Origin: a virus
Reading direction: 5' to 3' (one strand)
DNA length: 40,412 nucleotides
IMG/VR virus record: IMGVR_UViG_3300023284_000477
Span: 1 to 40,412 of that record
The translations under genes were made by a program, and so were the position numbers. Positions within the stretch are counted from its first letter, which is position 1. The number at the start of each line of letters is the position of its first letter. Below, piece after piece: positions 1,515 to 40,412 of this stretch. The notes under the pieces are model-generated. The model searched no databases and was not told the DNA's origin. It saw nothing but the letters and a program-made list of their open reading frames with translations.

Positions 1515-1516
1515 TT

Positions 1517-4793: not shown

Positions 4794-4841
4794 CAACATC
4801 TATCGACCTGAACGGCGTCAGCTTAGTAGGGTCGATAATAT

Positions 4842-4921: not shown

Positions 4922-4940
4922 CAAAATTAAGTTTATAGAT

Positions 4941-5604: not shown

Positions 5605-5605
5605 T

Positions 5606-5821: not shown

Positions 5822-5829
5822 ACAACACT

Positions 5830-6066
5830 ATGTTAATAACAATTTTTTACGATCACAACCGGTTCGAATCAGCAGTAGAAGCCGCACAGCGAGGCGAAGC
5901 TTACGGTGTAGAATATACCGACACGCACATGATTGTCACCGATCCTGATGACAAGATGACGAAACTTGAACGATTGACCGTTGTCGAAGGCTATCTTGAA
6001 AAAGAAGATCATCGAACACTATACGGATTTCTTAACCCTGACATGGAAAAACGCGCGACGATATGA
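5830..6066 (+). CDS. Hypothetical protein
   Basis: 78-aa ORF, same-strand packing. Confidence 0.55.
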   Translation: MLITIFYDHNRFESAVEAAQRGEAYGVEYTDTHMIVTDPDDKMTKLERLTVVEGYLEKEDHRTLYGFLNPDMEKRATI

Positions 6067-6099
6067 GCAAATACAGAGTAAAAGAAGTGATCAACAATT

Positions 6100-6309
6100 A
6101 TGACTGAAAGATTACATAGACAATGTCCTCACTGCAAAAGTAAAAAAGGATTTACGCTTTATTATACAATACACGGAAACGGCCATGAAGGTCGGGATTT
6201 CAAAGGAAAAGTCATTGACTGCGAGAGGGAAGTTTTTGATTCTAATGAAAGATCTGTTGAATGTTTAAATTGTGGGAAACCAATTCAATACGAAAAGGTT
6301 GAGACTTAA
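6100..6309 (+). CDS. Zinc-ribbon protein (CPHC...CLNC)
   Basis: 69-aa ORF with two CxxC pairs (CPHCKSKK and CLNCGK). Confidence 0.6.
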   Translation: MTERLHRQCPHCKSKKGFTLYYTIHGNGHEGRDFKGKVIDCEREVFDSNERSVECLNCGKPIQYEKVET

Positions 6310-6546
6310 GGAATCTATGACCTATTACCTCAGCATTATAGTATCGGAGTTTCGCAAAAGCTCAACGGACTTAATGAAAATGCTTATGCCTCGGCTACGC
6401 ATTTAAATAATAATCACTACTTTAGACAAATGAATCCATCTCACGCCAAGCTAAGTAACATAATAGGCATTATTTGCAATAATATCTACTATGCTAAATA
6501 GCCCACACTCAGCCACACCCCAAATAAATATTATGATTAGAGTGCC

Positions 6547-7973: not shown

Positions 7974-8781
7974 GATACCAAAATTTGATGACAAGGACGA
8001 ATTGTTCGACTTCTTAGCGAAGAATGAAAGTGCTTTGATTGCTGAAAAAAAGCACAATGTCAAAGAGGCTGATCCACACTATATAATTTTACCAGGGACA
8101 AAAGATGCTGCTGATAAGGCGTCAACAACTGCCGCGCTTTTAGCGTCTAGTTCAATGCAAGTCAAGGTTGTGATCAATACGACAAACATTATGGATTCAC
8201 ATTCTGACGTTCATATCCCTGGACTATGGAAAAAGTCTATCAGAGACAACGGCGGAAGATTTAATCTGTTGCAAGAACACATAATGAAATTTGATCATAT
8301 CATATCAGACCCAGATCAAGTTAAAGCCTTCACTGAAATGTTAGCATGGAAGGCTCTTGGATTTGGAAAGTTCAAAGGCGATACTGAAGCGCTCATATTT
8401 GATGCGCTAATTGAAAAGTCTAGGAACGAATTCATGTTCAATCAGTATGCACAGGGCTTTGTCAAGAATCATTCTGTCGGAATGAGATATGTCAAACTGT
8501 TCCTTGCGATGAATAGTGAAAGCGTTGAACACTCAGCCAGAAAAGAAGTCTGGGATAAATTCATCGACGTGATCGTGAACAAAAAAGATGCAGAGAATCA
8601 GGGCTTCTTCTGGGCTGTAACTCAGGCGAAGATTGCTGAAGGATCTGCTGTTGTTAAAGGAAGTAATATCGTGACACCGACCATGTCGATGGAAGCGAAA
8701 TCACATAGTGCGCCGCCGAAAGGCACTCACGAAAATAACGGGCGCGAGCCGTCGAAAGACACCCGCAAAGCCTTATTGTAA
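7960..8781 (+). CDS. Prohead serine protease (HK97/S78-like)
   Basis: The track start 7900 is TTG; the ATG at 7960 gives MKKIEIPKFDD. Motifs are MDSHSDVHIPGLW, KNHSVGMRYV and AEGSAVVKGSNIVTP. It sits directly upstream of the capsid gene. Confidence 0.75.
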   Translation: MKKIEIPKFDDKDELFDFLAKNESALIAEKKHNVKEADPHYIILPGTKDAADKASTTAALLASSSMQVKVVINTTNIMDSHSDVHIPGLWKKSIRDNGGRFNLLQEHIMKFDHIISDPDQVKAFTEMLAWKALGFGKFKGDTEALIFDALIEKSRNEFMFNQYAQGFVKNHSVGMRYVKLFLAMNSESVEHSARKEVWDKFIDVIVNKKDAENQGFFWAVTQAKIAEGSAVVKGSNIVTPTMSMEAKSHSAPPKGTHENNGREPSKDTRKALL

Positions 8782-8834: not shown

Positions 8835-10322
8835 ATGAAAAAGATATTCAAATTATCTAAAGCCGTCGGAATTCTCTGCATGGTTTTCTTGCTTGTTGCC
8901 TCTACCGGCAATATTGATATGGCTTATGCTGCGACTGGCGGTGTTGTTGTGTTTAGCGTATTAGCGCACTTCAGCCCTGCACACAAAGGAGTGGCTTTCG
9001 ATGGCGCGATTGTTATTCCTGACTTTACTGAAAAGTCACTTGAAGATCAAGAAGAAATGACATTCGCAGAACTGAAGGAGTACCGAATGAAAGAAAATGA
9101 TTTTATTTCAAAAACATTGGAAAAACGGCTTCAAGATCAGCTTGATGAAATTAATGAAGGTCGCGAAGAAGGAAAAGATATGTCTGCTGAAATTGAGGCT
9201 ATCGAAACCAAGATGACCAAGATGATTGATGAAGTCAATAAGCACGGCTTACTGATGAAGAAAATTTCTGAAAAAGGATTTTCACACGGGCCTAATGAGG
9301 TTAAAACTATTAAAGGCGCATTGATAGAACGCAAAGATGAATTGGACAAATTCATCGAAGCTAAAGGCGGTACGTTCGAAATGGAAGTTGATATATCAAA
9401 AGCTTCTCAATCTGCTGCTGATATTGATGCTGGAACTGACTTCGCTCAGATCATACCTGGTGTTGGGCAAATCGCAAGAAAGAAAATCTATATCAAGGAA
9501 AGAATCAGAATTGTTCCTACTAACACGGAATTTATCAAATTTCTTGATCAAGAAACTGTTGTTCGTGACGCGAAGAATGTTGCCGGTTGTGCAGTATCAA
9601 CTTCGACTACTAAATTGACTTGGAAAACAAGAACGCTTCAACAACAAAAAATTCGTGACTTCATCGATGTATGTATTGACATGCTTGAAGACTATGACTT
9701 CGTTGAAGCTGAGATCAGAAACTTGATTGAAAGTTCTGTTCAGTTGAAAATTGACAATGACCTTCTTCTTGCTGACGGTATTGCGCCGAATCCGAATTCA
9801 ATTGATTCTGTATCTGCTACATTTGCTGCTGGCGATTATGCTTTGCTTGTGCCTACGCCGACTATCATTGATTTGATTGTTGTTGTCTCTGCTCAGATCA
9901 AAGCTAACGGTCAGGAGAACTTCTGGAATGCTGACACATGTTATATCAATCCTGTCAATCTGACGTTGTTGAAACTATTGAAAGACAACGAAGAAAATTA
10001 TATCAAAGGAAATTCAATTTCGCCTTCGATCATAATGGATAGAGCTGGAAACATAGTTGTTGACGGAATGGTTGATTTGATTCCAAATCCAAATGTTGTG
10101 ACTAATCAAATGTATGTGTTTGATTCAACACAGGCTGCAATCTATCAAAGAAAAACTGCTGTGATCGAAATGTCTTTTGAAAACAAAAGTAACTTCGAAA
10201 CAGAAACTGTGACTGTGAAAGCTTACGAACGATTAAATCTTTTAGTAAGAAATGTGAATGCGAATGCTTTCATTCATGTTCCAAACATCACGACCGCAAT
10301 TGCTGCTATTACAAAACCGTAG
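8835..10322 (+). CDS. Major capsid protein (HK97 fold) with a coiled-coil delta-like region and an unusual hydrophobic N-terminal extension
   Basis: Phage-capsid-family-like core, for example KIRDFIDVCIDMLEDYDFVEAEIRNLIESSVQLKIDNDLLLADG. Residues 75-190 are charged and coiled-coil. Residues 1-32 look like a signal peptide. An alternative ATG lies at 9057. Confidence 0.85.
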   Translation: MKKIFKLSKAVGILCMVFLLVASTGNIDMAYAATGGVVVFSVLAHFSPAHKGVAFDGAIVIPDFTEKSLEDQEEMTFAELKEYRMKENDFISKTLEKRLQDQLDEINEGREEGKDMSAEIEAIETKMTKMIDEVNKHGLLMKKISEKGFSHGPNEVKTIKGALIERKDELDKFIEAKGGTFEMEVDISKASQSAADIDAGTDFAQIIPGVGQIARKKIYIKERIRIVPTNTEFIKFLDQETVVRDAKNVAGCAVSTSTTKLTWKTRTLQQQKIRDFIDVCIDMLEDYDFVEAEIRNLIESSVQLKIDNDLLLADGIAPNPNSIDSVSATFAAGDYALLVPTPTIIDLIVVVSAQIKANGQENFWNADTCYINPVNLTLLKLLKDNEENYIKGNSISPSIIMDRAGNIVVDGMVDLIPNPNVVTNQMYVFDSTQAAIYQRKTAVIEMSFENKSNFETETVTVKAYERLNLLVRNVNANAFIHVPNITTAIAAITKP

Positions 10323-10403: not shown

Positions 10404-10802
10404 ATGAAACTATTCAAGGGTAAAACAGATGCCGAAAAATTGGAAGATGCTTCTGCTAAAATTGAGGCCGCAGAAGCCGCGCAATTGGAAGCCGAAACCA
10501 AAGCTGAAGCTGCTGAGTCGAAAGTTGTAGATTCTGAAAAAAAATTAACCGATGCAAATGTTGTGATTGAAAAGTCGCAAAAAGAATTGGATACAATTGC
10601 TGAAGCGAAAGCTGAAGCTGCCGTTGAAATTAAACCGGCTGGAAATTCCGCTCAAGAATCGGTGAAGCTAGCAAAAGCTAATCGAAAGATGGTGAAGTTT
10701 AAAGGCAACGGAAAGAACAAGGCGCTTGGAATTTCGACACATGAGGTTGAAGAATCTGAAGCGAAAATGTTCGCAAAGGTTGATTGGGGTGAAATTGTTT
10801 AA
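10404..10802 (+). CDS. Ala/Glu/Lys-rich coiled-coil head-module protein (scaffold- or decoration-like)
   Basis: 132 aa with an EAAEAAQLEAETKAEAAESK low-complexity helix. It follows the capsid gene. Confidence 0.6.
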   Translation: MKLFKGKTDAEKLEDASAKIEAAEAAQLEAETKAEAAESKVVDSEKKLTDANVVIEKSQKELDTIAEAKAEAAVEIKPAGNSAQESVKLAKANRKMVKFKGNGKNKALGISTHEVEESEAKMFAKVDWGEIV

Positions 10803-10804
10803 TA

Positions 10805-11341
10805 GTGCCTTTACCGATTACAAATATCACTGACTTCGTCGGAACGACACAGCTTCAAGAGGATGATAATACTGAAGATAAATTCAATGTCATTCGTGAC
10901 GAACGTGAGAATACTTATATATTCAAGTTGCTCGGTGCTGAACTGGGCAACTTGTTTATTGCTGATTTAGATGCAAACGGTGTTCCGCAGACGGCAAGAT
11001 TCACTGACATTTTTGAAGCCTTTGCTGAAGATGTATCGAGCGGATTTTGCTTCGAATGGATGACGATCAACGGACTAGTTGAAAGCAAAGGAATAAAACA
11101 ATATTTAATTGATACGGTTTGGTTCTATTTCGCCAGAAACAACCCAGTGCTTATAACAACCGGCGGAAACAAAATATCTGAAAGCGAGAATTCAAGCAAC
11201 AGCGCAGACGGTGCAACACTTGGAAGGATATACAACAAAGCTGTTGATACTGGGCTTGCGATTCAATGGTTCATTGAAGACAAGCCGACTATCTATCCTG
11301 AATACAACGGTCAAAAATTAAAGTACATAATCCCGAATTAA
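10805..11341 (+). CDS. Hypothetical structural protein (head-tail joining region)
   Basis: 178-aa ORF with a GTG start 2 nt after the upstream stop. The call rests on position only. Confidence 0.55.
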   Translation: MPLPITNITDFVGTTQLQEDDNTEDKFNVIRDERENTYIFKLLGAELGNLFIADLDANGVPQTARFTDIFEAFAEDVSSGFCFEWMTINGLVESKGIKQYLIDTVWFYFARNNPVLITTGGNKISESENSSNSADGATLGRIYNKAVDTGLAIQWFIEDKPTIYPEYNGQKLKYIIPN

Positions 11342-18700: not shown

Positions 18701-19377
18701 AGGATCGTGAAGAAGAATTCAAACAGCTTGCAAAAGAAAAAGGTCTTGATGCCACTGAATCAATACAGGCCGAACGTGATGCGCAAAAGAAAGCACTTGA
18801 AGAACAGCGAAAAATTGAGGCTAAAAAGGCGCAGATCGAAGCCCTTCTTGTTGCGCTCAGGTTGCTTGCCGCAAAAGTTGAACAGGGTGAAGGAAATCCT
18901 GTCACAAATATCAAGGCTGACATCTTGAATCTGAAGTCGTTTGTTGAAGGTGCGTTCTATGACGGAACGCCTTTCACTATTGCTGATGCGCTTGGTCACA
19001 CTTCAGGGCGTGACAGTCATGTTGTCGCTGTTGACAATGACGAATCAATAATGACAGGATCGCAGACCAAACAGATGGGAATTGGCAAAGGAAAGAAATC
19101 GACGCAAGATGTTGTTAATGAATTGTCAATGTATAGATCCGGTATTCTTGCAAACAAAGCCAGACATCAGCTTGATTCAAATAGGATCATGCAGCCGGCA
19201 GTTAAAGAATCAGATAATTCTATATTAAGCGGAAAGCTGGATCAAATAATTGACAACACTAACCCAAACAATCAGCCAGTTGATAAGACAACTTTTGACG
19301 TGGCGACTGGAATGCTTGAACATGAACATCGATCCAGAATGAAGCGATCAACTATAAAATATTACGTCAGAAAATAA
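15715..19377 (+). CDS. Tail tape measure protein
   Basis: 1220 aa, coiled-coil rich, with central hydrophobic segments and an Ala-rich TMP core (ALATGAEIPEAAALAGSALRAFGLDASEMDRVVSVLAV). Confidence 0.9.
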   Translation: MARVETGKVVNPKLFDPVGESALRAEKDLKIFSDGLKEVIKLQAKIGKQLKKSAKGFTQLAAAERKSKKASSEKEKVDKRILTLQEKMTKVSKIQRDREAALRVELQRRNKVSKQQAILANQNIGAFDKLNVKIKQLSDRYRNLLVAEGKETKATRILKKEILSLNKIRDQANQKIGITTGSMNRMNKTVGALKTGFAQLGLAIGVFQIFRNILGTIVNVDTALTDLAAISGKTSAELEPLKNQAFELGETTQNTASEILALQLELAKLGFTTDEIMKSTGGIQKFALATGAEIPEAAALAGSALRAFGLDASEMDRVVSVLAVATTKTALNFNFLQTAMSTIAPVAAAFGFSIEDTTALLGQLANAGFDASSAATATRNILLNLADANGELAKALGRPITSVDELAGAFSELQDKGVDLATALELTDKRSVAAFETFLKGSDSLVELRDSITDVTGELDEMSAKKLDSISGATSLLASAWEGLILEWNEGAGIGETLKNGLVFLAKNLKIIIKVAIGAVKVWVLYRIQMKLFRFETDKAGRSIAVGLIPNLIKSTKAVFASAKAFRIGAISVKSFGNALKRIPFLAIISGLFTLVSLFWDTDEAIEETAADAGDLEDQMSSLERVNKNVTEGLVEEEAKLRLVFDQLKATTAGTKERKEALDKVNDIYGLTLQNLSDEGEFVRQLNAAYDVLIANIERRIRIELVGQEVNELTKQKIILENELLKTEGSRTKSKEKNLARQIELQNELRELEKQGLILTGDPILDEQENRKTIARIELIKSELLDINDILNVGGTLQEARISNIDETIKRLFASIGGIQEFSFIEKTPSGVVGAEAEKLNRLAALRKKHNTELLELENELIKAGVDKELRDFIISQKRIEFFREAGELIIDLDFKDKGVLIKHENDYLKFIEKNQIERVDVHKKADDKIVDNSKLMFQELEEDEPTFLEKLGEAFDELRSEIAETAKFIAKFFENNIKLLDKQIEAEQRNFNEAKDREEEFKQLAKEKGLDATESIQAERDAQKKALEEQRKIEAKKAQIEALLVALRLLAAKVEQGEGNPVTNIKADILNLKSFVEGAFYDGTPFTIADALGHTSGRDSHVVAVDNDESIMTGSQTKQMGIGKGKKSTQDVVNELSMYRSGILANKARHQLDSNRIMQPAVKESDNSILSGKLDQIIDNTNPNNQPVDKTTFDVATGMLEHEHRSRMKRSTIKYYVRK

Positions 19378-26206: not shown

Positions 26207-26637
26207 AATACTTAATAATTATATTGATACTGACAGGCTGTTCTTCACAGTGGCATCTTCGAAGGGCTATCAAAAAAGACCCTTTGATTGTTCAGGTAGA
26301 TACATTGTCAATAATTGACACGGTGACATTCACTACTGAAACGATTCGAACTGATTCAACATTTTTTATATCAAAAGACACTGTGATAATTATCAAGGAT
26401 AAATTGACAATAAAGCACTTCATTCAAAACGATTCGGTTTATATTTGGGGTGAATGCGAAGGTGATACAATTGTTAAAATTCTTGAACGTGATGTCATTA
26501 TTGATAGGTGGATTTATCCCAAAAAGAAGTGGACTGAATATTTGCCGCCGACCTGGATTCTTGTCTGTGCGTTTATTTATTTAGCTTGGCGTCGATGGTT
26601 TAGAAAGGACAATCATCAGGCTGATGATCAAGACTAG
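26203..26637 (+). CDS. Unimolecular-spanin-like lipoprotein (lipobox plus C-terminal TM)
   Basis: The N-terminus MKYLIIILILTGC carries the lipobox LTGC. The middle is beta-strand-rich. The C-terminal TM is TWILVCAFIYLAW followed by RRWFRK. ATGA coupling to the amidase gene. Confidence 0.6.
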   Translation: MKYLIIILILTGCSSQWHLRRAIKKDPLIVQVDTLSIIDTVTFTTETIRTDSTFFISKDTVIIIKDKLTIKHFIQNDSVYIWGECEGDTIVKILERDVIIDRWIYPKKKWTEYLPPTWILVCAFIYLAWRRWFRKDNHQADDQD

Positions 26638-27016
26638 ATTCCGTTGATTCAAATGTAAAGTTTTCGGGCTTTCCTTTTTCATCGCGAACATATTGAAGAT
26701 GTTTCTTTTTATTTTTGGAATTACTAAGAACTTGAAGATTGTCTACGTGATAGCCTTCCCATTCTCTAATTCTGTCCACATGAAAACTATGTTTTTGCCT
26801 TCCCTTTCCGAACATATAATGTGTCTCAATAGCCCACTTTTTAAATTCTTCAAATGTTAGATTGAATTCTTTTCGACGTTTTTTGGCGTTACCTCTAAGA
26901 TTTTGATAAGCGTATTGAATAGGATTGTTTTCGGAATATCGTTTCTGTTTGCAACTAGGGCAAAGTGTTCTGTGTTTTTGTCTCTTTTTACGGCAATTTG
27001 GCGTTGAACATTTCAC
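26600..27016 (-). CDS. HNH endonuclease (zinc-ribbon N-terminus)
   Basis: CSTPNC...CPSC, then HVDRIREWEGYHVDNLQVLSNSKNKKKH as the HNH core. GTG start. The 3' end overlaps the spanin-like gene by 38 nt (convergent). Confidence 0.75.
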   Translation of the reverse strand: MKCSTPNCRKKRQKHRTLCPSCKQKRYSENNPIQYAYQNLRGNAKKRRKEFNLTFEEFKKWAIETHYMFGKGRQKHSFHVDRIREWEGYHVDNLQVLSNSKNKKKHLQYVRDEKGKPENFTFESTESSLDHQPDDCPF

Positions 27017-27028
27017 ATCTATCGTTTT
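27014..27028 (-). promoter_or_regulatory. Start-codon-fused box AAAACGATAGATGTG (copy 2 of 6)
   Basis: The reverse complement of cacatctatcgtttt ends in the GTG start of the HNH gene. Confidence 0.65.
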
Positions 27029-27036
27029 ACCACCAA

Positions 27037-27062
27037 AGCCCCACTACGTTAATAGTGAGGCT
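27037..27062 (-). other. 10-bp stem-loop between the 27090 gene and the HNH gene
   Basis: On the minus-strand RNA, agccucacua-uuaacg-uaguggggcu pairs with 9 Watson-Crick pairs and 1 G-U pair. No U-tract follows. Confidence 0.45.
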
Positions 27063-27089
27063 TAGTGTATCCGCAAGAATTTGCGAAAC

Positions 27090-27323
27090 TTACGAATGTT
27101 GGTTTAATTTTCCTACTAACCAATATCGAGACATCCAACTTGACCAAACAAAGACACCACCTTGCTCTGGATCGTAAGTTAATTGATTATCAAAAGCTGT
27201 AAATTCTTGTGTTTGTTCGGCGGTTCCGTCTTTTACTCTTTGTAAAAAATCTTCTTTTGAAATGATTTTACCGATTCTTTGAAGTCTATTGGTTAATGGA
27301 TTTGAAAATCTTGAAGTGTTCAT
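27090..27323 (-). CDS. Hypothetical protein
   Basis: 77-aa ORF, first gene after the early promoter module at 27369-27433. Confidence 0.6.
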   Translation of the reverse strand: MNTSRFSNPLTNRLQRIGKIISKEDFLQRVKDGTAEQTQEFTAFDNQLTYDPEQGGVFVWSSWMSRYWLVGKLNQHS

Positions 27324-27359
27324 GTTGCAAATTTTTAATTGTTCGTCTTATTGACATAA

Positions 27360-27433
27360 CAAATATAAGTATAAAAGTATAACAAACAAGTATTATTTGA
27401 AAAAACTTTCAAAAAAGATGTGTAAAATTTAAC
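27360..27433 (-). promoter_or_regulatory. Early promoter/operator module (minus strand)
   Basis: The minus strand reads GTTAAATTTTACACATCTTTT (27413-27433), GTTATACTTTTATAC (27369-27383) and TATATTTG (27360-27367). Confidence 0.6.
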
Positions 27434-27456
27434 ATAAATAGAGAATCGAATGATAG

Positions 27457-27666
27457 TTATTTAGTGATAAATTCAATTTTAAGACCACGGCGCAATTTTA
27501 TGACAGTTCTGTCTGTCAGGCTTGCTAAAACCTTCTTAAAGTGTCTCTGCTGAAGCTCAAGACCTAAATGTTTCTCATATTGCCCCGCGCCGATAAGCTG
27601 TGATTTTTCGCCGGCATAAGTCAGGCAAATAATGAAGTCTTTATTTATCCGATTAATGTCTGTCAT
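27457..27666 (-). CDS. Hypothetical protein
   Basis: 69-aa ORF with ATGA coupling. Confidence 0.55.
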   Translation of the reverse strand: MTDINRINKDFIICLTYAGEKSQLIGAGQYEKHLGLELQQRHFKKVLASLTDRTVIKLRRGLKIEFITK

Positions 27667-27884
27667 TTTCTAAACTTATTCATCAGGATTGTGAAGTGTT
27701 CTTTTGCAAATTCCAGTTGAATCCCAGGATATGATTTTGCTTCATCAAAAAGTTCGTTCAAAAAGAATTCGACTTCGTCAAAACTTTCAGCATTATCAGC
27801 ATCAATCAATATCGTTGAAAATGATCTAAGAATGTCACCTTCAATGCTGATAATAATTCGTGAACGACTAGCTATCAAATTCAT
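27663..27884 (-). CDS. Hypothetical acidic protein
   Basis: The track start 27968 overlaps the upstream ORF by 100 nt. The internal ATG at 27884 (MNLIASRS...) reduces the overlap to 17 nt. The ATG at 27905 is also possible. Confidence 0.5.
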   Translation of the reverse strand: MNLIASRSRIIISIEGDILRSFSTILIDADNAESFDEVEFFLNELFDEAKSYPGIQLEFAKEHFTILMNKFRK

Positions 27885-28050
27885 CAATGATGTCAATTTG
27901 ATCATTCTGAACAATCGCCTGAACGCCTTTTTTATCTTCGCATAGATAATGCAAAGAATGGACTTCAATAACCTTGACCGGCGTTCCTTTTTTATAGTTG
28001 TGAAGAATCCCTTGATCCTTGCTTCCGGTGTGCTTTATTTTTCCTTTCAT
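27868..28050 (-). CDS. Hypothetical protein
   Basis: 60-aa ORF with ATGA coupling to the upstream gene. Confidence 0.5.
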   Translation of the reverse strand: MKGKIKHTGSKDQGILHNYKKGTPVKVIEVHSLHYLCEDKKGVQAIVQNDQIDIIDEFDS

Positions 28051-28259
28051 GATTGTAAATTAATTGCTTTAGTTCGCCATTGGCTGACCTCTAATTCCAT
28101 CGATTTAACTTCTTGACTTAATCTTGTAATTAGCCAGGAGTCTTTAAATCGTTGCGAAGGATTTTGACCTTCAAAATGATCTGTCTGTTCTTGCCGGATC
28201 TTCGCAAGTCGTTCGTTAATGATTTCTGGATTTTGGTTGTCATTTTCTGATTCGCTCAT
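28047..28259 (-). CDS. Hypothetical protein
   Basis: 70-aa ORF with ATGA coupling. Confidence 0.55.
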   Translation of the reverse strand: MSESENDNQNPEIINERLAKIRQEQTDHFEGQNPSQRFKDSWLITRLSQEVKSMELEVSQWRTKAINLQS

Positions 28260-28546
28260 ATTTCGATTTTATCAATTAGAAAGTCATTTATTTCTTTGGT
28301 GACTTCGATTTCAGTTCCATCGACGTCTAATTTAATCAATTTAGTAATTTCCGTCAATACGTCATAATCGTATGCCTCATATTCACATTCATTTCCGCGA
28401 TCCGTTTGGATATAATTTGCCGGTTCGCGTTCTGTTGTGGATTTGGCTTCGACTTCATATTCCTGATTGTCAATATAAACGCATGTAGAATAGATTCCAT
28501 TGTGCTCATAGACTTTTTCGTGATGTTCAAAATTTATTAAGTTCAT
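28256..28546 (-). CDS. Hypothetical acidic protein
   Basis: 96-aa ORF whose ATG is fused to the AAAAACGATAGAC box. Confidence 0.6.
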   Translation of the reverse strand: MNLINFEHHEKVYEHNGIYSTCVYIDNQEYEVEAKSTTEREPANYIQTDRGNECEYEAYDYDVLTEITKLIKLDVDGTEIEVTKEINDFLIDKIEI

Positions 28547-28559
28547 GTCTATCGTTTTT
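28544..28559 (-). promoter_or_regulatory. Start-codon-fused box AAAAACGATAGACATG (copy 3 of 6)
   Basis: It lies in an 11-nt spacer and overlaps the TAA stop of the PP-loop gene. There is no room for a promoter. Confidence 0.65.
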
Positions 28560-29451
28560 AGTATTTAGATTGAACACAGTGACCGTGTGACATCTTATAT
28601 TCAATCAGGTCGTCATTAGTCATGTGGCCGTATTTTTTAGTAACTTCTTCAAGCTTGGCCGGAAGCAAAGTCGCGCCCCAAACACCAAGATTTTTTTCGC
28701 CTTTATGTTGGTTAGCCGCGATCTTGTTTGCTTCAAGTTGAACCCATTTGTCAAACCATGTTCTTTTCAATCTGTAAAGATAAAGCAGTTCAATATCATT
28801 CATAAACGGACAAAGGATGCAGACGCTAGGAATAGGCAATTCATGTCCGACAGATTTGATATAGTCCTGACAAGCTTGACGATCCATTTGTTCAATTATC
28901 AACGGATAAACTTTGTTAACACATTCTCGCATCCATTTTGATGGGCTTTCTTCATTGGTTGACGCTCTCTTTTCTTCGCCTTTAGCGATGCCTATGATTA
29001 CATCAATCTTTCCGTTTACTTCAGTGAATTCTTTAGTTGCCGCTTTGCGTCCGACTTTAGCTGTATTATATTTTTCGTGAATATAGATTTCAAGAAATTT
29101 ATAAATCGGCTGAATCTTCAGCTTATCAGTGCAAGTTTTCGGAAATGCTTTGCTTCCGATCCTGTTTCCTTTTTCGTAAAATTTAATCAATCCGCCTTTC
29201 CAGGAATCAGATGTATAGGTGTAATCTTCAAGAAAGAAGAAATCAATCTTATGATCAGCGCAAAGTTTTTCAATTTCTTTGACGTGATCAAGCGTTTCTT
29301 GATTTTCATTTCCGGTGTTTGCCATGATGATGACTAAATCGCCTTTAACATGCTTGGCTTTAAATGATGGATCATAAATTATTTTGTAAAGAATTGCAGT
29401 CGAATCTTGTCCGCCCCCGAAACTTAAAAGTGTTAAATTATTGGTTGGCAT
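28558..29451 (-). CDS. PP-loop ATP-pyrophosphatase / PAPS-reductase-like protein
   Basis: The N-terminus LLSFGGGQDSTAILYKI matches the SGGxDS PP-loop. Also present are a CxxC (CILCPF) and a C-terminal SHGHC. Size is 297 aa. Confidence 0.7.
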   Translation of the reverse strand: MPTNNLTLLSFGGGQDSTAILYKIIYDPSFKAKHVKGDLVIIMANTGNENQETLDHVKEIEKLCADHKIDFFFLEDYTYTSDSWKGGLIKFYEKGNRIGSKAFPKTCTDKLKIQPIYKFLEIYIHEKYNTAKVGRKAATKEFTEVNGKIDVIIGIAKGEEKRASTNEESPSKWMRECVNKVYPLIIEQMDRQACQDYIKSVGHELPIPSVCILCPFMNDIELLYLYRLKRTWFDKWVQLEANKIAANQHKGEKNLGVWGATLLPAKLEEVTKKYGHMTNDDLIEYKMSHGHCVQSKY

Positions 29452-29464
29452 ATCTATCGTTTTT
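29449..29464 (-). promoter_or_regulatory. Start-codon-fused box AAAAACGATAGATATG (copy 4 of 6)
   Basis: It ends in the ATG of the PP-loop gene and sits in the 22-nt spacer after the small 46-aa ORF. Confidence 0.65.
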
Positions 29465-29473
29465 ATATAAATT

Positions 29474-29614
29474 CTATTTATTAATACTATTTTGCATTTC
29501 TTCTAACTGATAAGTGAACTTCACTTGATCATCATCATTTAGAATTCCATCTTCATTCAAAAATTCTAGTACTTCAATTAGCTTTTCAATTGTTTTTTCT
29601 GCTTCTTCTTTCAT
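29474..29614 (-). CDS. Small acidic protein (46 aa); not in the ORF track
   Basis: Manual translation gives MKEEAEKTIEKLIEVLEFLNEDGILNDDDQVKFTYQLEEMQNSINK*. Its ATG is fused to the conserved box. Confidence 0.5.
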   Translation of the reverse strand: MKEEAEKTIEKLIEVLEFLNEDGILNDDDQVKFTYQLEEMQNSINK

Positions 29615-29628
29615 GTCTATCGTTTTTT
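29612..29628 (-). promoter_or_regulatory. Start-codon-fused box AAAAAACGATAGACATG (copy 5 of 6)
   Basis: Reverse complement of catgtctatcgtttttt. It lies downstream of the promoter module at 29663-29718. Confidence 0.65.
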
Positions 29629-29662
29629 GTTTGTTTCTATACTGTAAATATATAATAAATAT

Positions 29663-29718
29663 GTATAAAAGTATAAAAGTATAACAAAATAATTCAAAAA
29701 AGATGTGTAAAATTTAAC
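29663..29718 (-). promoter_or_regulatory. Early promoter/operator module (minus strand)
   Basis: The minus strand reads GTTAAATTTTACACATCTTTT (29698-29718) and GTTATACTTTTATACTTTTATAC (29663-29685). Confidence 0.6.
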
Positions 29719-29726
29719 ATAAATAC

Positions 29727-29749
29727 AAAAAGCCCCGTCAATAGGGGCC
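29727..29749 (-). terminator. Rho-independent terminator (minus strand)
   Basis: The minus strand reads GCCCC-tattgac-GGGGC followed by TTTTT, just downstream of the 29776 gene. Confidence 0.6.
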
Positions 29750-29775
29750 TTAAGTGAATTAAAAAAATTGATTGT

Positions 29776-30369
29776 TTAACCTCTAAAAGTTACAAAAACT
29801 GTAATAGTCCCTAGAGCTGCATCATTTGGTTCAAAATCAAGAAGCAAATAAGGAAGCGTAACGGCGCCCCCAGCGTTTGCGCTGTTTGGTACGCCTGGTG
29901 TCACTGAAATTGTTCCGCCGACTTGGATTCTTGGTGTTGTTCCAGCGCCGTCATTTATCGGAACTTCTGAAAAGTCAAGGTCTGAACCAGTTCCATTCAA
30001 TCCGACTGAGATTGCTGCGAAACTAACCCTGTTCACGTTTTCAAGAATGCCACTTGTATTAATCACAATAGTCTGAAATCCTAACGAAACATCGACATCA
30101 AATTGATAAGACTCATACGCTGGAGTGCTTGCCCCTGAACTATTTCGAAAGAATTGTATTAAAGTCGCTGTTGTGTACGCTGTTGTGCCTGGTGAATCAA
30201 ACCAAGTACCGGAATCTGCCTTTAATATTATGAGCCTTCCGCCGCGTTCCTCATTGAGGATTATTTCAGTCGCCGTTTCTGTGTAGGACGTTCTATTTTG
30301 GGCATATTCAGATATAGTGCCATCGTTATCTGCGATGATATAATTTCCTGATACAAATATTTTCTTCAT
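29776..30369 (-). CDS. Hypothetical beta-rich Gly/Thr/Ser-rich protein
   Basis: 197-aa ORF, last gene of the leftward recombination operon. No recognisable motif. Confidence 0.65.
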   Translation of the reverse strand: MKKIFVSGNYIIADNDGTISEYAQNRTSYTETATEIILNEERGGRLIILKADSGTWFDSPGTTAYTTATLIQFFRNSSGASTPAYESYQFDVDVSLGFQTIVINTSGILENVNRVSFAAISVGLNGTGSDLDFSEVPINDGAGTTPRIQVGGTISVTPGVPNSANAGGAVTLPYLLLDFEPNDAALGTITVFVTFRG

Positions 30370-30398
30370 GATGATTAATTTTCTTAAAGCAAATATAG

Positions 30399-30956
30399 TT
30401 AAATTTTGAACACGCCACGTTTTATGAGTTCGAACACAATGTCGGCTTCATGAAGGGCGTCGTCAGCGCCGCGATGCTTTTGAATATATCCTGTGGCGAT
30501 CCCGAAATAGAAGTCCCAAGCCTCTTTTGCACTAGGGTTTTTATTCCTTCCGTTTTTACCCCTAGCATCAACAATCTTTCTTGATAGTTTCATCGGACAT
30601 GGAAGTTTTTTAGGAAAAACAAGCCCGACACGCTCAAGGAATCGGAAGTCAAATTCATTATTAAACGCTGTTATTCCGTTTGAGTATTCAAAAAGAATGT
30701 TTTGAATCTTCATTACTTGATTGTCAATTAAGTCACCTTTAAAGATGTCGGCTGTCGTCATAAATCCTTTTTCAACTATCCAGCATTCATTCAGTTCTTC
30801 TTCCGTTATGAATTGAGGCTTGAAAATTTCATCATAAATGATGTTTTTTGCCCCGCTGTCAATGTTAAGTTCCACGATTCCAATTTCTACAATTTCGTCA
30901 TCAGGTCTAAATCCAGTCGTTTCGATGTCGATTATCAATATTTTGTCTTGATTCAT
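30399..30956 (-). CDS. DEDDh 3'-5' exonuclease (DnaQ-like)
   Basis: ExoI is ILIIDIETTG, ExoII is AFNNEFDFRFL and ExoIII is HRGADDALHEADI. Confidence 0.85.
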   Translation of the reverse strand: MNQDKILIIDIETTGFRPDDEIVEIGIVELNIDSGAKNIIYDEIFKPQFITEEELNECWIVEKGFMTTADIFKGDLIDNQVMKIQNILFEYSNGITAFNNEFDFRFLERVGLVFPKKLPCPMKLSRKIVDARGKNGRNKNPSAKEAWDFYFGIATGYIQKHRGADDALHEADIVFELIKRGVFKI

Positions 30957-31345
30957 TCTAGTAGGTGTTTGTCTTGATAAATATTTCCTATTACTTCAAT
31001 TGTTCCGCCATCAATAACTGTGCATAATGGAAGCCCGTGATCGCCTAATTTTAGCTGAAAAGCCCCATTTACAAAAATCACTTCTTGAATAGTTGGTGAT
31101 ATATGTGCGGGTGAATTTGTTTCAACAATGTGGCCTTCATATATTTCGGCTTCGTTCTTGTCTTTTAATCCGGTGTATTGGCAATTTGTTCCGGTTTTTA
31201 TTACATGATAAACATAATCACAAACTATATTAAAATCATTCCAAGATCTAATTCCGGCAATCCCAACGTCGCCATCGTGTAGCAAATCGCCATACACCCA
31301 CTTTCCTTCTTGGGTTAGCCCTCTAAATTTTACTTCCCTGCTCAT
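30953..31345 (-). CDS. YopX family protein
   Basis: Motifs KFRGLTQEGKWVYGDLL, QYTGLKDKNEAEIYEGHIV and IEVIGNIYQDKHLLE. Confidence 0.8.
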   Translation of the reverse strand: MSREVKFRGLTQEGKWVYGDLLHDGDVGIAGIRSWNDFNIVCDYVYHVIKTGTNCQYTGLKDKNEAEIYEGHIVETNSPAHISPTIQEVIFVNGAFQLKLGDHGLPLCTVIDGGTIEVIGNIYQDKHLLE

Positions 31346-32210
31346 TCCCTAAAAGTGTTAAAGTATTAAAAATAAATTCACGACATTCTTTGACTCGGAT
31401 TTCAATCTGATCAATCGCGCCTTTTTCGAATTCAATGTCAAAGGCTTTGATTCTGTGCTGTATTTTAACTTTACCGAATGTCATCTTATCGACAAACTTG
31501 TCATAAAGATCTTTATCAAGATCGCCGTATCCATTAAAAAATGCGTAGTTCCTGGCCTCACGTTCGATCAAATATTCTGGGGTGTCCATAAGACAATATA
31601 TGACGCGGTGCTTGGTTCTTTTAGTCAGGTGCATATATCCCTGGCCTTGCCAGTAATAATCCATATTAGGAAGGCCGGATTCAAACAGGGGAAAAGTTGA
31701 CTGATCCCAGTTGGCTTTTGTGTCAATAGTTTCGTCTGGCTGAACGTTGTCAGGTGTTCCGGTCATGAATTTATTCTTATAATTTCTTTCGTTCTTGGTC
31801 AATAATCCGTATCCCAAATTATCAGACACAAAATCAAGCGCATGATCTTCGACAACATTTCCTTTTTCGATGTACTTGCTTTTGATTTCCTTCCTTCTTC
31901 CGTAGAATTCAGGCTGCTCTTTAAGCCAGTCAAGACAATAAGTTTTTGCAGTGTCGCCTAAAATGACAACATCTTTCATTTTCTGCAACCCTGGTAATTC
32001 ATCACATTGCTTCTTTATTGATTCATATAGTTTCAATCCGCCGGCGCCGTCTTTTGTCTTCATTTCATCGTACCGTTTTTCGTCTTTCGCCAGTTTTTCA
32101 ACGGCTTCAGTATATTTAATCATGTTTGACTTTCCTCTAGGATTGGTCATTATTTTTCCGATTGCAGAACATCGGATCTTGAATCTTTCTGCGATTTCTT
32201 TAATGTTCAT
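31323..32210 (-). CDS. YqaJ/lambda-Exo-like recombination exonuclease (PD-(D/E)xK)
   Basis: The N-terminus has RCSAIGKIMT. The catalytic-like segment is MTGTPDNVQPDETIDTKANWD. It lies in an operon with an ERF annealase. Confidence 0.7.
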   Translation of the reverse strand: MNIKEIAERFKIRCSAIGKIMTNPRGKSNMIKYTEAVEKLAKDEKRYDEMKTKDGAGGLKLYESIKKQCDELPGLQKMKDVVILGDTAKTYCLDWLKEQPEFYGRRKEIKSKYIEKGNVVEDHALDFVSDNLGYGLLTKNERNYKNKFMTGTPDNVQPDETIDTKANWDQSTFPLFESGLPNMDYYWQGQGYMHLTKRTKHRVIYCLMDTPEYLIEREARNYAFFNGYGDLDKDLYDKFVDKMTFGKVKIQHRIKAFDIEFEKGAIDQIEIRVKECREFIFNTLTLLGNEQGSKI

Positions 32211-32401
32211 TATTTTAGTTTTTTGGTTAATCTTATTTCAAGTTCATATTTTGGTTCAGTATAAATCCCTGTTGAAACATCACTGATGGTTGATTTCAAA
32301 TTCATTTTCTCGCCGTCCTTCAGCATTGTTTTTTCAAATTCGTTTTCGGGAATAAGTCTAATTTTAGATATCCCGTTTTTTATAATTAATTCAGAAGTCA
32401 T
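32210..32401 (-). CDS. Hypothetical protein
   Basis: 63-aa ORF, coupled on both sides. Confidence 0.5.
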   Translation of the reverse strand: MTSELIIKNGISKIRLIPENEFEKTMLKDGEKMNLKSTISDVSTGIYTEPKYELEIRLTKKLK

Positions 32402-33069
32402 GATTTCAGTAGTTTTTCATTTTCCTTTGTTAGCTTATATTTCTTTTTAATCGCCGTAAGCGTTGCCGATTTATTCTTCAAAGACTTCTTTGCTGCATCC
32501 CATTTCTTGTGGTCTGGCGTCAGTTCTTCCTTTTTATTTTCTGACGGTTCATTTCCGTCAGTATCATCGTCAGCAGAAAGCCCGACGGCACCCTTTAATG
32601 TATATCGCTTCAGATAGCTAACGGTTGAACCTATTGACTGAATAGTGTTCTTGTTGCCAGAACCGTCTTTTGGTGCTGTCATAGAAGTTCTTTCTTCATG
32701 ACCGTCAATGTGTGAAACGACACAAGTGATGTTTATTTCGCCGAGTGCTTCTTTGGTTTCCCATCTATAAGAAAGGCCACATTTTGATAATATTGGATCA
32801 ATCGCTTTCTGTATGACAGAAAGCGGCATGAATTTATATTGAAATTTATCGTTGTAAAAAACTTTCTTCTCTTTTTTAAGTTCCGGCTTATTGCCTTGGA
32901 ATTCAACCATCGCGCGTTTAAATGATTTTGAAGCTTCATTTCTGTCGAAGCGTTCTTTTAGTTCCATTAGTTTTTCAAGTTTGCCGATGTCAGCGTCTTT
33001 TTCAACTGCTAATTCAAGCAACATTATATAGTTGTTTTTCGCTGGCAAATTATCTTTTTTCATTGTCAT
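32398..33069 (-). CDS. ERF-family single-strand annealing protein
   Basis: Motifs LSVIQKAIDPILSKCGLSYRWE, IQSIGSTVSYLKRYTLKGAVGLSADDDTDG and a Lys-rich tail. Confidence 0.75.
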   Translation of the reverse strand: MTMKKDNLPAKNNYIMLLELAVEKDADIGKLEKLMELKERFDRNEASKSFKRAMVEFQGNKPELKKEKKVFYNDKFQYKFMPLSVIQKAIDPILSKCGLSYRWETKEALGEINITCVVSHIDGHEERTSMTAPKDGSGNKNTIQSIGSTVSYLKRYTLKGAVGLSADDDTDGNEPSENKKEELTPDHKKWDAAKKSLKNKSATLTAIKKKYKLTKENEKLLKS

Positions 33070-33329
33070 GATCTTATGTTTTTTAAAATTTCTTTAAAGT
33101 GATTGTCGAAATCTATTTCAGTGATCATTTCGTGATCATTGCTGAGAGCTTCAACTGCGGATCTAAAACATGATTCGTTTCTTTCTATTTGATTAGCGTA
33201 ACCCCAAACACGAACAGCATCATTTACTCCTATTATTTTGAAAGACGACGACATGCTTCTTATATAGAAAGGGACTTCGATTTCAACTTTGTTTTGTACT
33301 GTTTCATTTTTTTTAACTATAATTTTCAT
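33066..33329 (-). CDS. Hypothetical protein (87 aa)
   Basis: The track start 33383 runs into the promoter region. The ATG at 33329 (MKIIVKKNE...) is fused to the conserved box. Confidence 0.6.
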   Translation of the reverse strand: MKIIVKKNETVQNKVEIEVPFYIRSMSSSFKIIGVNDAVRVWGYANQIERNESCFRSAVEALSNDHEMITEIDFDNHFKEILKNIRS

Positions 33330-33342
33330 ATCTATCGTTTTT
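33327..33342 (-). promoter_or_regulatory. Start-codon-fused box AAAAACGATAGATATG (copy 6 of 6)
   Basis: Reverse complement of catatctatcgttttt. Confidence 0.65.
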
Positions 33343-33351: not shown

Positions 33352-33440
33352 CAAATATATATAAAAATATAAAAGTATAACAAATAAAAGACGTTAAATA
33401 TTTAACACATTTATATTTGTATAATGTTATACTTTTTTAC
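33352..33440. promoter_or_regulatory. Divergent early promoter region sharing the palindrome GTTAAATATTTAAC
   Basis: Leftward: TATATTTG (33352-33359, minus strand) and GTTATACTTTTATA (33368-33381, minus strand). The central palindrome is at 33393-33406. Rightward: GTTATACTTTTTTAC (33426-33440). Confidence 0.6.
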
Positions 33441-33463: not shown

Positions 33464-33661
33464 ATGGATGCAGATAAAAACAACGATAGACTATTCCTAA
33501 ATCCAAGAATTGATGTCGATGAAAGAAATGAATTCGAACATCATATTCTTGACGCAAAACAAGGCGGAATGAAGCTTGATAAGTCAAAGTTGATTCGCGC
33601 TTTTGTGACCAAGTTTAACGATGATCCTTCAAAAATGTTGAAGTATATCGGCCTTAAATAA
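33464..33661 (+). CDS. Small protein, possible ribbon-helix-helix-type regulator
   Basis: 65 aa, first gene of the rightward early operon. The N-terminal beta-strand-then-helix pattern (RLFLNPRIDVDERNEFEHHIL) is only suggestive. Confidence 0.5.
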   Translation: MDADKNNDRLFLNPRIDVDERNEFEHHILDAKQGGMKLDKSKLIRAFVTKFNDDPSKMLKYIGLK

Positions 33662-37711: not shown

Positions 37712-38392
37712 ATGCAATATATGGGAAGTAAAAATAGGATAGCAAAACACTTGCTACCTATAATGTTGGAAAATAGAGGCAGCAAGACTTGGGTTGAGCC
37801 TTTTGTCGGTGGCGCTAACATGATTGACAAAGTTAATGGTAGGCGAATAGGCGCTGATAATCATAAACATTTGATCTCGCTGCTTATAGCCTTACAAAAT
37901 GGGTGGACGCCTCCAGTAAAAATAAGTAAAGAAATGTATTACGAAATTAAAAATAATCAAGACAAACATAGTGATGAACTTATCGGATTTGTAGGATTTC
38001 TCTGCAGCTTTGGTGGTAAATGGTGGGGCGGATACGCTGCAAATAAAAAGGGAGACAATTATGCAGATAGAGGCAGTAGGATGCTTGTAAAACAAGCGAA
38101 AAATTTTGACGGTATCGATTTTAAAAATAAATCTTATAAAGATTTGGACATTCCTGCCGATAGTTTGATTTATTGCGATCTGCCGTATAAGGGAACAACG
38201 GCATATAAGGGCGGCTTTAATCATGATGAATTCTGGGAGTGGTGCAAGCAAAAAGCAAAAGAAGGACATCAACTATTTATAAGCGAATATAATGCACCAA
38301 AAGATTTTAAATGTATAAAAGAGGTGATTCACAAAACGATACTTGATAAAAACAGTCAATATAAGAGGATTGAAAAGTTGTTCACAATATGA
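37712..38392 (+). CDS. DNA N6-adenine methyltransferase (Dam/D12 class)
   Basis: The start is taken at MQYMGSKNRIAKHLLP. Motif I is VEPFVGGANM and motif IV is the DPPY variant YCDLPYKGT. Confidence 0.85.
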   Translation: MQYMGSKNRIAKHLLPIMLENRGSKTWVEPFVGGANMIDKVNGRRIGADNHKHLISLLIALQNGWTPPVKISKEMYYEIKNNQDKHSDELIGFVGFLCSFGGKWWGGYAANKKGDNYADRGSRMLVKQAKNFDGIDFKNKSYKDLDIPADSLIYCDLPYKGTTAYKGGFNHDEFWEWCKQKAKEGHQLFISEYNAPKDFKCIKEVIHKTILDKNSQYKRIEKLFTI

Positions 38393-38874
38393 ATAAAGAG
38401 AACAAAAAACGATTAGTAGATCTATACGTCGCAGCGCATAAAACGAAATATCCGTCTGTGCCGGATTATGCGATTCCGATTCCGAAATATTCTGACAGTA
38501 AAACGAACGGATTGACAAAATGCGTCATTGCGTTTATCAATCTGTCTGGATTCCAGGCCGAACGAATTAGCAATTCGGGTCGATATATTGACAATAAGAA
38601 AACATTTGTAGATGTTGTTGGTCGGAATCGGACTGTCGGATCTGGTAAGTGGATTCCAGGATCAGGGACGCCAGGGACTGCCGACATCAGTTCAACGATA
38701 ATGGGTCGATCTGTGAAGATTGAAATCAAGTTCGGCAACGATAAGCAGTCACCGGCACAAAAGAGGTATCAAGAAATGATTGAATCAGCCGGCGGCATCT
38801 ATATAATAGTAAAAACGTTCGATCAGTTCATTCAGTGGTACGATGAATTTATCGCTAAAATAAGACAGTCATGA
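38389..38874 (+). CDS. VRR-NUC-like PD-(D/E)xK nuclease
   Basis: GTPGTADISSTIMGRSVKIEIKFGNDKQSPAQKRYQEMIESAGGIYIIV matches the D...ExK...Q pattern of VRR-NUC. Confidence 0.55.
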   Translation: MNKENKKRLVDLYVAAHKTKYPSVPDYAIPIPKYSDSKTNGLTKCVIAFINLSGFQAERISNSGRYIDNKKTFVDVVGRNRTVGSGKWIPGSGTPGTADISSTIMGRSVKIEIKFGNDKQSPAQKRYQEMIESAGGIYIIVKTFDQFIQWYDEFIAKIRQS

Positions 38875-40048: not shown

Positions 40049-40412
40049 AGTCATCGATATAGCTGGATCTAAGCTGTCGAAAATGACGACGCAAATGACG
40101 ACGGGTGCAAAAAAGGCTCTGTTAGCTGCGCTTGGTCAAGAGGATGTCGAAGAAAAAGGCGGCGATCTTAGCTCGGTTATTCAGGATAAGACGCCGAAAG
40201 TTGTTCAGGAAAAGATTGACGTCACTAAATACAACCGGCATAATCGGCGTACACAGGCTTTTGTAATACATAACAAAGAAAGCGACTTATACATGCGCCG
40301 GACTATCGATTTCAAAACGCAAGTGGTTACGCGAAAAGACGTTCCGCTTGAAGAAGCAACGACGTTTAAATTCAAGTATTTGATGCGAGTGATCGATGAA
40401 GTGCCTGGTAGA
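40023..40412 (+). CDS. Hypothetical protein, 5' part of the junction-spanning ORF (continues at 1-198)
   Basis: The ATG at 40023 gives MKSKKKETKVIDIAGSKLSKMTTQ.... The frame is open to the window end and identical to bases 1-144 over the repeat. Confidence 0.7.
   Translation, partial: MKSKKKETKVIDIAGSKLSKMTTQMTTGAKKALLAALGQEDVEEKGGDLSSVIQDKTPKVVQEKIDVTKYNRHNRRTQAFVIHNKESDLYMRRTIDFKTQVVTRKDVPLEEATTFKFKYLMRVIDEVPGR
40269..40412. repeat. Terminal direct repeat, copy 2 (identical to 1-144)
   Basis: Exact 144-bp identity read by eye. Confidence 0.9.

Follow-up and report, generated by a model that had tools for sequence, protein, structure and literature searches.

A repeated box fused to the start codons of six accessory genes in a phage with a predicted Bacteroidota host: a candidate RNA-level initiation element

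In the IMG/VR virus record IMGVR_UViG_3300023284_000477, which we analyzed over its full length of 40,412 nucleotides (nt) and refer to as the window, six accessory genes begin in the same way: the 11-mer AAAACGATAGA is followed by one base and then by the start codon, giving the full pattern AAAACGATAGA[Y][R]TG. This box is a real and statistically secure repeat that is locked to the start codon. We tentatively read it, with a confidence somewhat short of even, as a cis-acting initiation element that would work at the RNA level and be recognized by its sequence in register with the start codon. The reading draws on the register, the strand, the edges, the invariance of the inner 11 bases, the copies inside operons and the departure from the generic optimum, taken together. 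A preliminary description of the same DNA had suggested a signal at the level of RNA or translation that is neither a promoter nor a Shine-Dalgarno (SD) sequence; that still appears to be the best reading, given the fixed register, the strand, the sharp edges and the operon copies, while the analogy with T4 RegA that it drew is a functional one only.

Results

Six identical copies in register with start codons

We searched both strands of the window exhaustively with AAAACGATAGAYRTG and recovered exactly six matches, all with 0 mismatches. No further match was found on either strand at up to 2 mismatches, and no antisense partner of the box was found in the window. The chance expectation, from 100 dinucleotide-preserving shuffles, was a mean of 0.56 copies with a maximum of 4. 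In a census of 10- to 13-mers only two families reached six copies, namely the box 11-mer AAAACGATAGA and an early-promoter module, TTGTTATACTTTTATA.

Each of the six copies finishes in the start codon of an open reading frame (ORF) on the same strand, with the end of the box at position -2; one copy lies on the plus strand and five on the minus strand. Copy 1 (4479-4493, plus; AAAACGATAGATATG) ends in the ATG of a 100-amino-acid (aa) gene, and copy 2 (27014-27028, minus; AAAACGATAGATGTG) ends in the GTG of a 138-aa HNH/EndoVII-like gene, 8 nt 3' of a conserved hairpin. Copy 3 (28544-28558, minus; AAAACGATAGACATG) stands at the start of a 96-aa gene, copy 4 (29449-29463, minus; AAAACGATAGATATG) at that of a 297-aa PAPS-reductase-like gene, copy 5 (29612-29626, minus; AAAACGATAGACATG) at that of a 46-aa ORF and copy 6 (33327-33341, minus; AAAACGATAGATATG) at that of an 87-aa gene. 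The preliminary description had reported six copies at start codons, and the six exact matches confirm it; its end coordinates ran 1-2 nt too long for four of the copies. The related ATG-fused sequence that it had noticed at 4941 is present as well, in the form of a degenerate seventh copy (4935-4943, plus) that has only ATAGATATG in common with the box and forms the start of a 95-aa gene (4941-5228).

The edges of the box are sharp and common to the copies, at -12/-13 upstream and -2 downstream. Differences among the copies are confined to -13 (A in four, T in two), -1 (T in four, C in two) and +1 (A in five, G in one), and the 11 inner bases are invariant. Beyond the optional A at -13 the flanks are dissimilar, with the exception of the pair 4479/33327, which has a promoter and GAACT in common. 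The invariance of the inner 11 bases between unrelated flanks favors selection on a sharply bounded element over drift after copying.

A near copy with 1 mismatch, ACAACGATAGA, occurs at 33480-33490 (plus) within the first codons of a 65-aa gene, which heads the divergent early operon on the plus strand, and is not fused to a start codon.

The box in the setting of SD-independent initiation

No SD-like sequence was found at any of the 58 predicted starts of the window that lack the box, which bears out the earlier remark that the genome carries no SD sequences. At these 58 starts A occupies 60-66% of positions -14 to -10 and 69% of position -3, matching the published rule for Bacteroidia (PMC6847099). 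The promoter-like modules of the window have the Bacteroidota form, TTTG ... TAnnTTTG, and the best protein matches, which are distant, are to Cellulophaga and Polaribacter phages. The predicted host is a Bacteroidota bacterium.

The box follows the Bacteroidia rule only in part. Its A-run at -13 to -9 and its A at -6 fit, and all six copies carry G at -3. When scored on a start-region matrix built from the 58 other starts, the six sites reached 0.9-4.1, against a median of 2.7. The G at -3 and the median score suggest that the box is more than the best generic leader. A by-eye comparison with the 3' tail and the 1490s region of 16S rRNA in general, not of the host's own, gave no convincing complement.

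Promoters, predicted leaders and RNA structure

For promoters we used the Bacteroidota consensus of PMC6847099, which also places the transcription start of F. johnsoniae 4-5 nt past the -7 element. All lengths of 5' untranslated regions (UTRs) in the window given here are predictions from that rule for the transcription start site (TSS). A scan of the window with a sigma-70 consensus was uninformative for a host of this type. The early-promoter module, TTTG-TTATACTTTTATAC-N-TATATTTG, has the -33/-7 form and occurs in 5-6 copies, at 4398-4469 (plus), 33412-33440 (plus), 33352-33395 (minus), 29645-29700 (minus) and 27360-27395 (minus); the box follows only three of them. Scanning IMG/VR with this module gave single chance matches only.

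Three copies of the box stand behind host-type early promoters. The copy at 4479 lies 9 nt past the -7 element TATATTTG (4462-4469), and from its predicted TSS at G4474 the predicted 5' UTR consists of GAACU plus the box, 17 nt in all. At 33327 the -7 element is at 33352-33359 and the predicted TSS at G33347, giving a predicted 5' UTR of 18 nt made of GAACUA plus the box. The predicted leaders of these two copies therefore have the form GAACU(A)AAAACGAUAGAUAUG, in which the box is the body of the leader; the native predicted 5' UTR carrying the box reads GAACUAAAAACGAUAGAUAUG. The gene of the copy at 29612 is the first behind the promoter module at about 29645-29690, itself preceded by a terminator (29729-29751), and the box forms the 3' half of a predicted UTR about 26 nt long.

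The remaining copies (28544, 29449 and 27014) are not promoter-proximal. The copy at 28544 sits in an 11-nt intercistronic spacer, and its first A is the last base of the upstream TAA stop codon (28558-28560), while the copy at 29449 lies within a 22-nt intercistronic spacer. Both spacer lengths and the overlap with the stop codon had been described correctly before, as had the stem-loop upstream of 27014, a strong hairpin on the minus strand at 27037-27062 (GCCUCACUAuuaacgUAGUGGGGC).

No -35-like element common to the six copies was found upstream of them at any spacing. Together with the copies inside operons, this argues that the box is not a promoter, and we discarded the promoter reading on these grounds. 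We also looked for conserved RNA structure and rejected it: no local structure is common to the six copies, and the predicted accessibility of positions -15 to +6 is average (0.60 at the box genes and 0.58 at other genes). The lack of a conserved structure and the average accessibility indicate that the box is a linear motif.

Genes led by the box

The six products are mutually unrelated, none is structural and all are accessory. The plus-strand gene (4491-4793) encodes a 100-aa protein of phrog_1273, function unknown. On the minus strand, the 138-aa gene (26600-27016) has a GTG start and encodes a small HNH/endonuclease VII-like protein with a basic N-terminal Cys4 motif. The 96-aa gene (28256-28546), whose product is acidic, is the sole box gene for which a relative has a homologue (L129, 95 aa, 27% identity). 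The 297-aa gene (28558-29451) encodes a PAPS-reductase-like/PP-loop protein of phrog_424 and is common in other phages, where it lacks the box. The 46-aa ORF (29474-29614), whose product is acidic and has no known homologue, is taken as coding by its position only. The 87-aa gene (33066-33329), of unknown function, is the first gene of the Erf/exonuclease operon. The earlier statement that no structural gene carries the box holds; the gene at 4491 lies between terminase and portal, yet it is a small accessory gene with an early-type promoter. Searches of the PDB by sequence were empty or non-significant.

A tRNA-like fragment lies just 3' of the 100-aa gene, at about 4843-4922 (plus). It has a canonical T arm, GCAAGGTTCGAATCCTTGC, at 4896-4914, a D arm and what may be an acceptor stem of 7 bp (UGGGGUG/CGCUCCA), and neither ARAGORN nor Rfam called it. 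It may represent a tRNA gene in decay or an att-like remnant.

Mosaic joints with relatives

The relatives available for comparison are partial sequences only. L125 (SDBU01000947.1), recovered by a metagenome scan, is 90% identical to the window in the primase, 60% in the portal and 47% in Erf, and no box was found within the 16.6 kb of it examined. It keeps the hairpin that precedes the copy at 27014 and the TTTGGTGG that follows, then runs through CAAAAAGAAGAAAATG into a different gene; homology with the window ends within the box, at 27022. As a side observation, two phages that are otherwise mosaic both keep this hairpin (GCCTCACTA-loop-TAGTGGGGC) plus TTTGGTGG, at 27037-27062 (minus) in the window and 14340-14365 in L125; the gene whose 3' end lies there and the gene that comes next differ between the two.

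L129 is syntenic with the early operon of the window. Its Erf-operon promoter agrees almost base for base with that of the window through GAAC and then gives way to AAAATCAGAATTATG and a non-homologous 88-aa gene, in place of the 87-aa gene, which is also absent from this position in L125 and L240. By blastn, homology with L129 runs as far as position 33340, where the box has its upstream edge. At the other early promoter, L129 drives the 95-aa homologue of the 96-aa gene directly after the terminator, whereas the window has two extra genes (46 aa and PAPS-like) between the promoter and the 96-aa gene, and all three genes are box-led. L240 and L126-128 have compact early operons without the box or any other repeated leader.

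In three comparisons with relatives, then, homology ends at the box or no more than about 22 nt upstream of it, and the box-led genes are absent or replaced. The box is thus lineage-specific and sits at mosaic joints, where it leads genes missing from the relatives. This lends indirect support to the cassette boundary that had been listed among the possible roles of the box. We considered whether the box travels with its gene and ruled this out for the PAPS-like gene, whose 65-68% identical homologues in L120-L122 have other leaders. A megablast of 26-34 kb of the window against INPHARED gave nothing relevant, tblastn with three box-gene products gave no match, and neither the PAPS-like gene nor the primase led to a close relative in protein scans of IMG/VR.

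A nearly identical box in an unrelated phage

Single matches to the 15-mer box in IMG/VR lie mostly inside coding sequence or off ORF starts. One unrelated contig, L052, stands as a counterweight to the absence of the box from relatives. L052 is an IMG/VR contig of 27.4 kb (GC 0.44) with only a weak tape-measure match to the window and no early genes in common with it. It carries [A/T]AAACGATA[A/G]ACATG at 7-8 starts of non-paralogous small genes, and 14 of 15 bases of its box are the same as in the window. Four of these starts are fused to AAAACGATA[A/G]ACATG, one of them identical to the window box, and three further copies, TAAACGATAAACAT, lie 3 or 9 nt before ATG. Three of the fused copies close a repeated promoter module of 102 nt. 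In a fourth such module the box is decayed, and the other copies are intercistronic. In each module (7604-7705, 8496-8597, 9508-9609 and 10732-10833) a perfect inverted repeat of 9 bp, CCCTGGAAC..GTTCCAGGG, is followed first by TATATTTG and after that by the box with its ATG. This inverted repeat resembles an operator or terminator that stands ahead of each early promoter.

Start families of the AAACGAT type were found in further contigs (L425/L391, L313, L284 and L456). In L425 there are 5 copies of ...ATCAAAAACAAAACGATATG within 237-7155 (minus strand), and in both L425 and L052 most copies lie within repeated promoter modules of 70-100 nt. As a control, the composition-matched scramble AAAAGCATAGAYATG gave no locus with at least three copies, though in one phage type it occurred twice. 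Other SD-less phage contigs have start-fused repeats built on different cores: TTGATAGAATATG four times in L368 (5724-8590), ATAGTATAT(A)ATG four times in L231 (619-5900) and AAACGAAATG four to five times in L429 (3357-6370). Repeated leader-start junctions may be common in Bacteroidota phages, and our literature search found no published description of them.

Discussion

Known systems that resemble the box

The closest known analogue of the box is the Start-Associated Sequence (SAS) described for Cluster K mycobacteriophages (Pope et al. 2011, PMC3203893), which the preliminary description did not name and whose function was still untested in 2025 (PMC12699233). Like the SAS, the box is a short asymmetric repeat (11-13 nt) in multiple copies above chance, which lies in one orientation right before mostly ATG starts of its genes, sometimes overlaps the upstream stop codon, occurs only at non-structural genes of different families and is seldom seen, if at all, in the host; both have been proposed to act in translation initiation. 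The two differ in several respects. The SAS follows the consensus GGGATAGGAGCCC, whose SD core can pair with 16S rRNA; it stands 3-7 nt from the start, numbers 11-19 copies, is conserved from one subcluster to another and often has an inverted-repeat partner, the ESAS. The box lacks GGGATAGGAGCCC and an SD core, as expected for an SD-blind host, and stands one base before the start. Its 6 copies are 100% identical, neither the relatives found nor their orthologous genes carry it, and it has no partner like the 17-bp inverted repeats of the ESAS. Upstream of -13 nothing is common to the copies except in the promoter pair, and the hairpin at copy 2 exists without the box in L125.

Other systems share fewer traits with the box. 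T4 RegA operators are likewise A/U-rich and overlap the initiation regions of several early mRNAs, and group control of translation is conceivable for both; RegA sites are degenerate, whereas the box is invariant. Scans of 56 ORFs of the window against Pfam or PHROGs, from which a few very small ORFs were left out, recovered no relative of RegA or RegB, and the analogy drawn earlier is reduced to a functional likeness. The SD-independent initiation region of Bacteroidia, with 'Kozak-like' upstream adenines and A at -3 as the main positive determinant (Baez et al. 2019, PMC6847099), resembles the box in its A-run at about -13 to -9, its A at -6, and an unstructured leader without SD or upstream AUG. 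That rule, however, is a composition bias and not a fixed sequence, and at -3, its key position, the box shows G; its matrix score is median. The L5-type stoperators of Cluster A mycobacteriophages, which PMC3203893 contrasts with the SAS, are asymmetric sites of the 13-bp class in early operons and in one orientation, as is the box; they differ in acting on DNA through a repressor, of which none was found in the window, and in being unphased with start codons.

Conserved gene-boundary or linker sequences have been proposed to guide mosaic recombination in lambdoid phages and, as PeSL, in T4. The box resembles them in lying at mosaic junctions with L125 and L129; its 12-15 nt, on the other hand, are very short for homologous exchange, and no pool of box-bearing partners at homologous genes was found.

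A proposed role in initiation

Positions -13 to -2 of an mRNA span the stretch between the P site and the 30S platform, the site of the SD helix in other bacteria. We envisage the box as a strand-specific cis element of 12-13 nt in the mRNA, from -13/-12 to -2. In a Bacteroidota host whose ribosomes ignore SD it would act as a portable initiation region for the six accessory genes, three times as most of a short predicted 5' UTR behind an early promoter and three times as an intercistronic junction. An identical sequence at six genes would give them one common translational behavior. The invariant CGATAGA, including the non-preferred G at -3, would be read sequence-specifically; candidates for the reader are a phage protein, a host protein or the ribosome itself, and initiation of the gene set could be either enhanced or repressed as a group.

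A more specific form of this proposal is that AAACGAUA(G/A)A at -12 to -2 serves as a sequence-specific SD substitute in SD-blind Bacteroidota, with a defined factor that recruits or positions the 30S subunit. Candidates for that factor would be an early protein of the phage, a host protein (bS1, for instance) and an exposed element of the ribosome. We regard this version as speculative and rather unlikely. If it were true, some phages would possess a private translation channel, and the L052 box and the AAACGAT-type families (L425, L313, L284 and L456) would belong to one recognition system.

Evidence against the proposal and alternative explanations

Several results weigh against an RNA-level element with a dedicated reader. 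The box is absent from L125, L129, L240 and L126-128 at up to 2 mismatches, and the leaders at orthologous genes of relatives differ or are merely box-like (AAAAACGGTTAGAAAATG in L129, ahead of the 95-aa homologue). The preliminary description had taken a lack of conservation in related phages as refuting its proposal, and formally this is what we found in four partial relatives (L125, L129, L240 and L126); the box would therefore be young or dispensable. Its perfect identity in six copies is also compatible with recent copying. In L052 the copies that lie 3 or 9 nt farther from ATG and the decayed box mean that an exact register is not obligatory there. L052 and the other AAACGATA loci were found with the box as query, and their common core is thus partly a matter of ascertainment. 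The two-copy family of the scramble control and the start-fused repeats with other cores weaken the case for one universal reader. AACGATA was not enriched at starts in control viral loci or in the pooled set. In a scan of 185,579 genomes for the promoter plus AAAACGATA, 29 of the 120 matches listed were start-linked, with no recurrent gene of Bacteroidota genomes among them; this also led us to reject mimicry of a host leader. No candidate reader emerged from the family scans, which matched no RegA, RegB, RNA-binding or other RNase family, and single-sequence AlphaFold models of the 100-aa and 87-aa proteins (pLDDT ~50) were not of usable quality.

The strongest competing explanation is a portable leader that was copied along with the acquisition of genes and has no dedicated reader. 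The box would have begun as the ordinary leader of one early gene and spread when accessory genes or promoter-leader modules arrived at gene starts by insertion or conversion, with the phage's Erf/exonuclease recombination acting on short homology; other A-rich leaders, if adequate, would suffice as well, and the identity of the copies would reflect their recency and the need for a working start region. The joints described above speak for it, with homology to L129 stopping at the box edge (33340) and homology to L125 within the box (27022), as does the early promoter that in L129 drives the 95-aa homologue directly and in the window is followed by two extra genes and the 96-aa gene, all box-led. 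The promoter, GAACT and box that copies 4479 and 33327 have in common point to duplication of a module, and the L052 and L425 copies lie mostly in repeated modules; relatives manage without the box, and other contigs have start-fused repeats with other cores. What speaks against it is that four of the six copies have nothing in common outside the 12-13 nt and yet have the same edges, when recombination scars should be ragged, and that the copies differ at -13, -1 and +1 alone, with the 11 inner bases free of substitutions. Copying also leaves the same 14 of 15 bases in the unrelated L052 unexplained, and no known mechanism would copy a leader of 12 nt and set it in exact register at each ATG newly added. 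On balance we consider this explanation serious but unlikely.

The remaining alternatives place the action of the box on DNA or in RNA cleavage. A stoperator-type site, at which a protein would bind the 11-mer and block or modulate transcription, with the proximity to starts incidental to intergenic placement, suits an asymmetric motif that keeps one orientation relative to transcription in the short intergenic spaces of non-structural operons. A roadblock has no need of the exact start register seen in 6 of 6 copies, however, no repressor, HTH protein or integrase was found, and six sites are few beside the roughly 24-30 stoperators of L5, which makes this improbable. It is more doubtful still that the box is the target of an endoribonuclease of RegB-like logic, where a cut in the box would inactivate initiation regions or process polycistronic RNA. 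Its placement at early-type initiation regions and intercistronic junctions, predicted to be single-stranded and free of stable structure, would suit such an enzyme; against this, no RegB-like or other RNase family was found in the phage, and in transcripts whose predicted 5' end is about 5-19 nt away from the box there is little for processing to remove. The phage encodes a sigma-70 family (ECF-like) protein (gene 2420-2896), and if transcripts started at the A of the ATG the box would occupy -12 to -2 of an ECF-type promoter for leaderless mRNAs that begin at the fused start codon. ECF sigma factors require a -35 element, yet none is common to the copies at any spacing; moreover, one copy has GTG, which is poor for leaderless translation, and three copies already lie 9-18 nt behind host-type promoters. 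We give this last explanation hardly any credence, and continue to favor, tentatively, an element read on the RNA.

Other features of the phage genome

The first and last 144 nt of the window are identical (1-144 and 40269-40412), indicating that the phage contig is complete, with a length of about 40,268 bp, and either circular or terminally redundant; its GC content is about 38%. It encodes a small and a large terminase, a portal, a major head protein and an amidase, a primase-polymerase, an Erf-like annealing protein, an exonuclease and YopX, and two DNA methyltransferases. Three HNH-type endonuclease genes occur in this 40-kb genome (308-823, the box-led 26600-27016, and 38389-38874), one of them with NUMOD4-HNH-AP2 domains; their number is consistent with the heavy mosaicism observed in the comparison with relatives. 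The ECF-like sigma factor has regions 2 and 4, lies on the plus strand immediately upstream of the large terminase gene and probably serves late transcription. No integrase, repressor or HTH family was recognized among the proteins of the 56 scanned ORFs, and no Rfam family or tRNA was called in the window.

A further 15-mer, TTACGTCAGAAAATA, is present in two exact copies on the plus strand (2873-2887 and 19362-19376). Both lie at gene 3' ends, 0-8 nt before the next start (terminase at 2896 and the gene at 19377). The upstream proteins end in ...LRQKIAS and ...YYVRK, so a common peptide does not account for the repeat.

Significance

The SAS kind of element is itself already known, and what is new here is its occurrence in a phage-host system without SD. 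How Bacteroidota ribosomes choose start codons without SD is only partly understood, and the literature describes composition rules (upstream adenines) and no sequence-specific element. An invariant 11-mer placed one base before six starts, and almost unchanged in an unrelated phage, offers a compact natural test object. With no SD core in the box, an effect of mutating CGATAGA could not be attributed to classical pairing with rRNA, whereas the confounding SD core has kept the mycobacteriophage SAS uninterpreted since 2011. If there is no reader, the boxes would be a record of SD-less phages reusing a portable leader as they acquire genes. Should there be a reader, it would represent a translational regulator or enhancer of a new type, and the box would be a useful expression part for Bacteroidota genetics.

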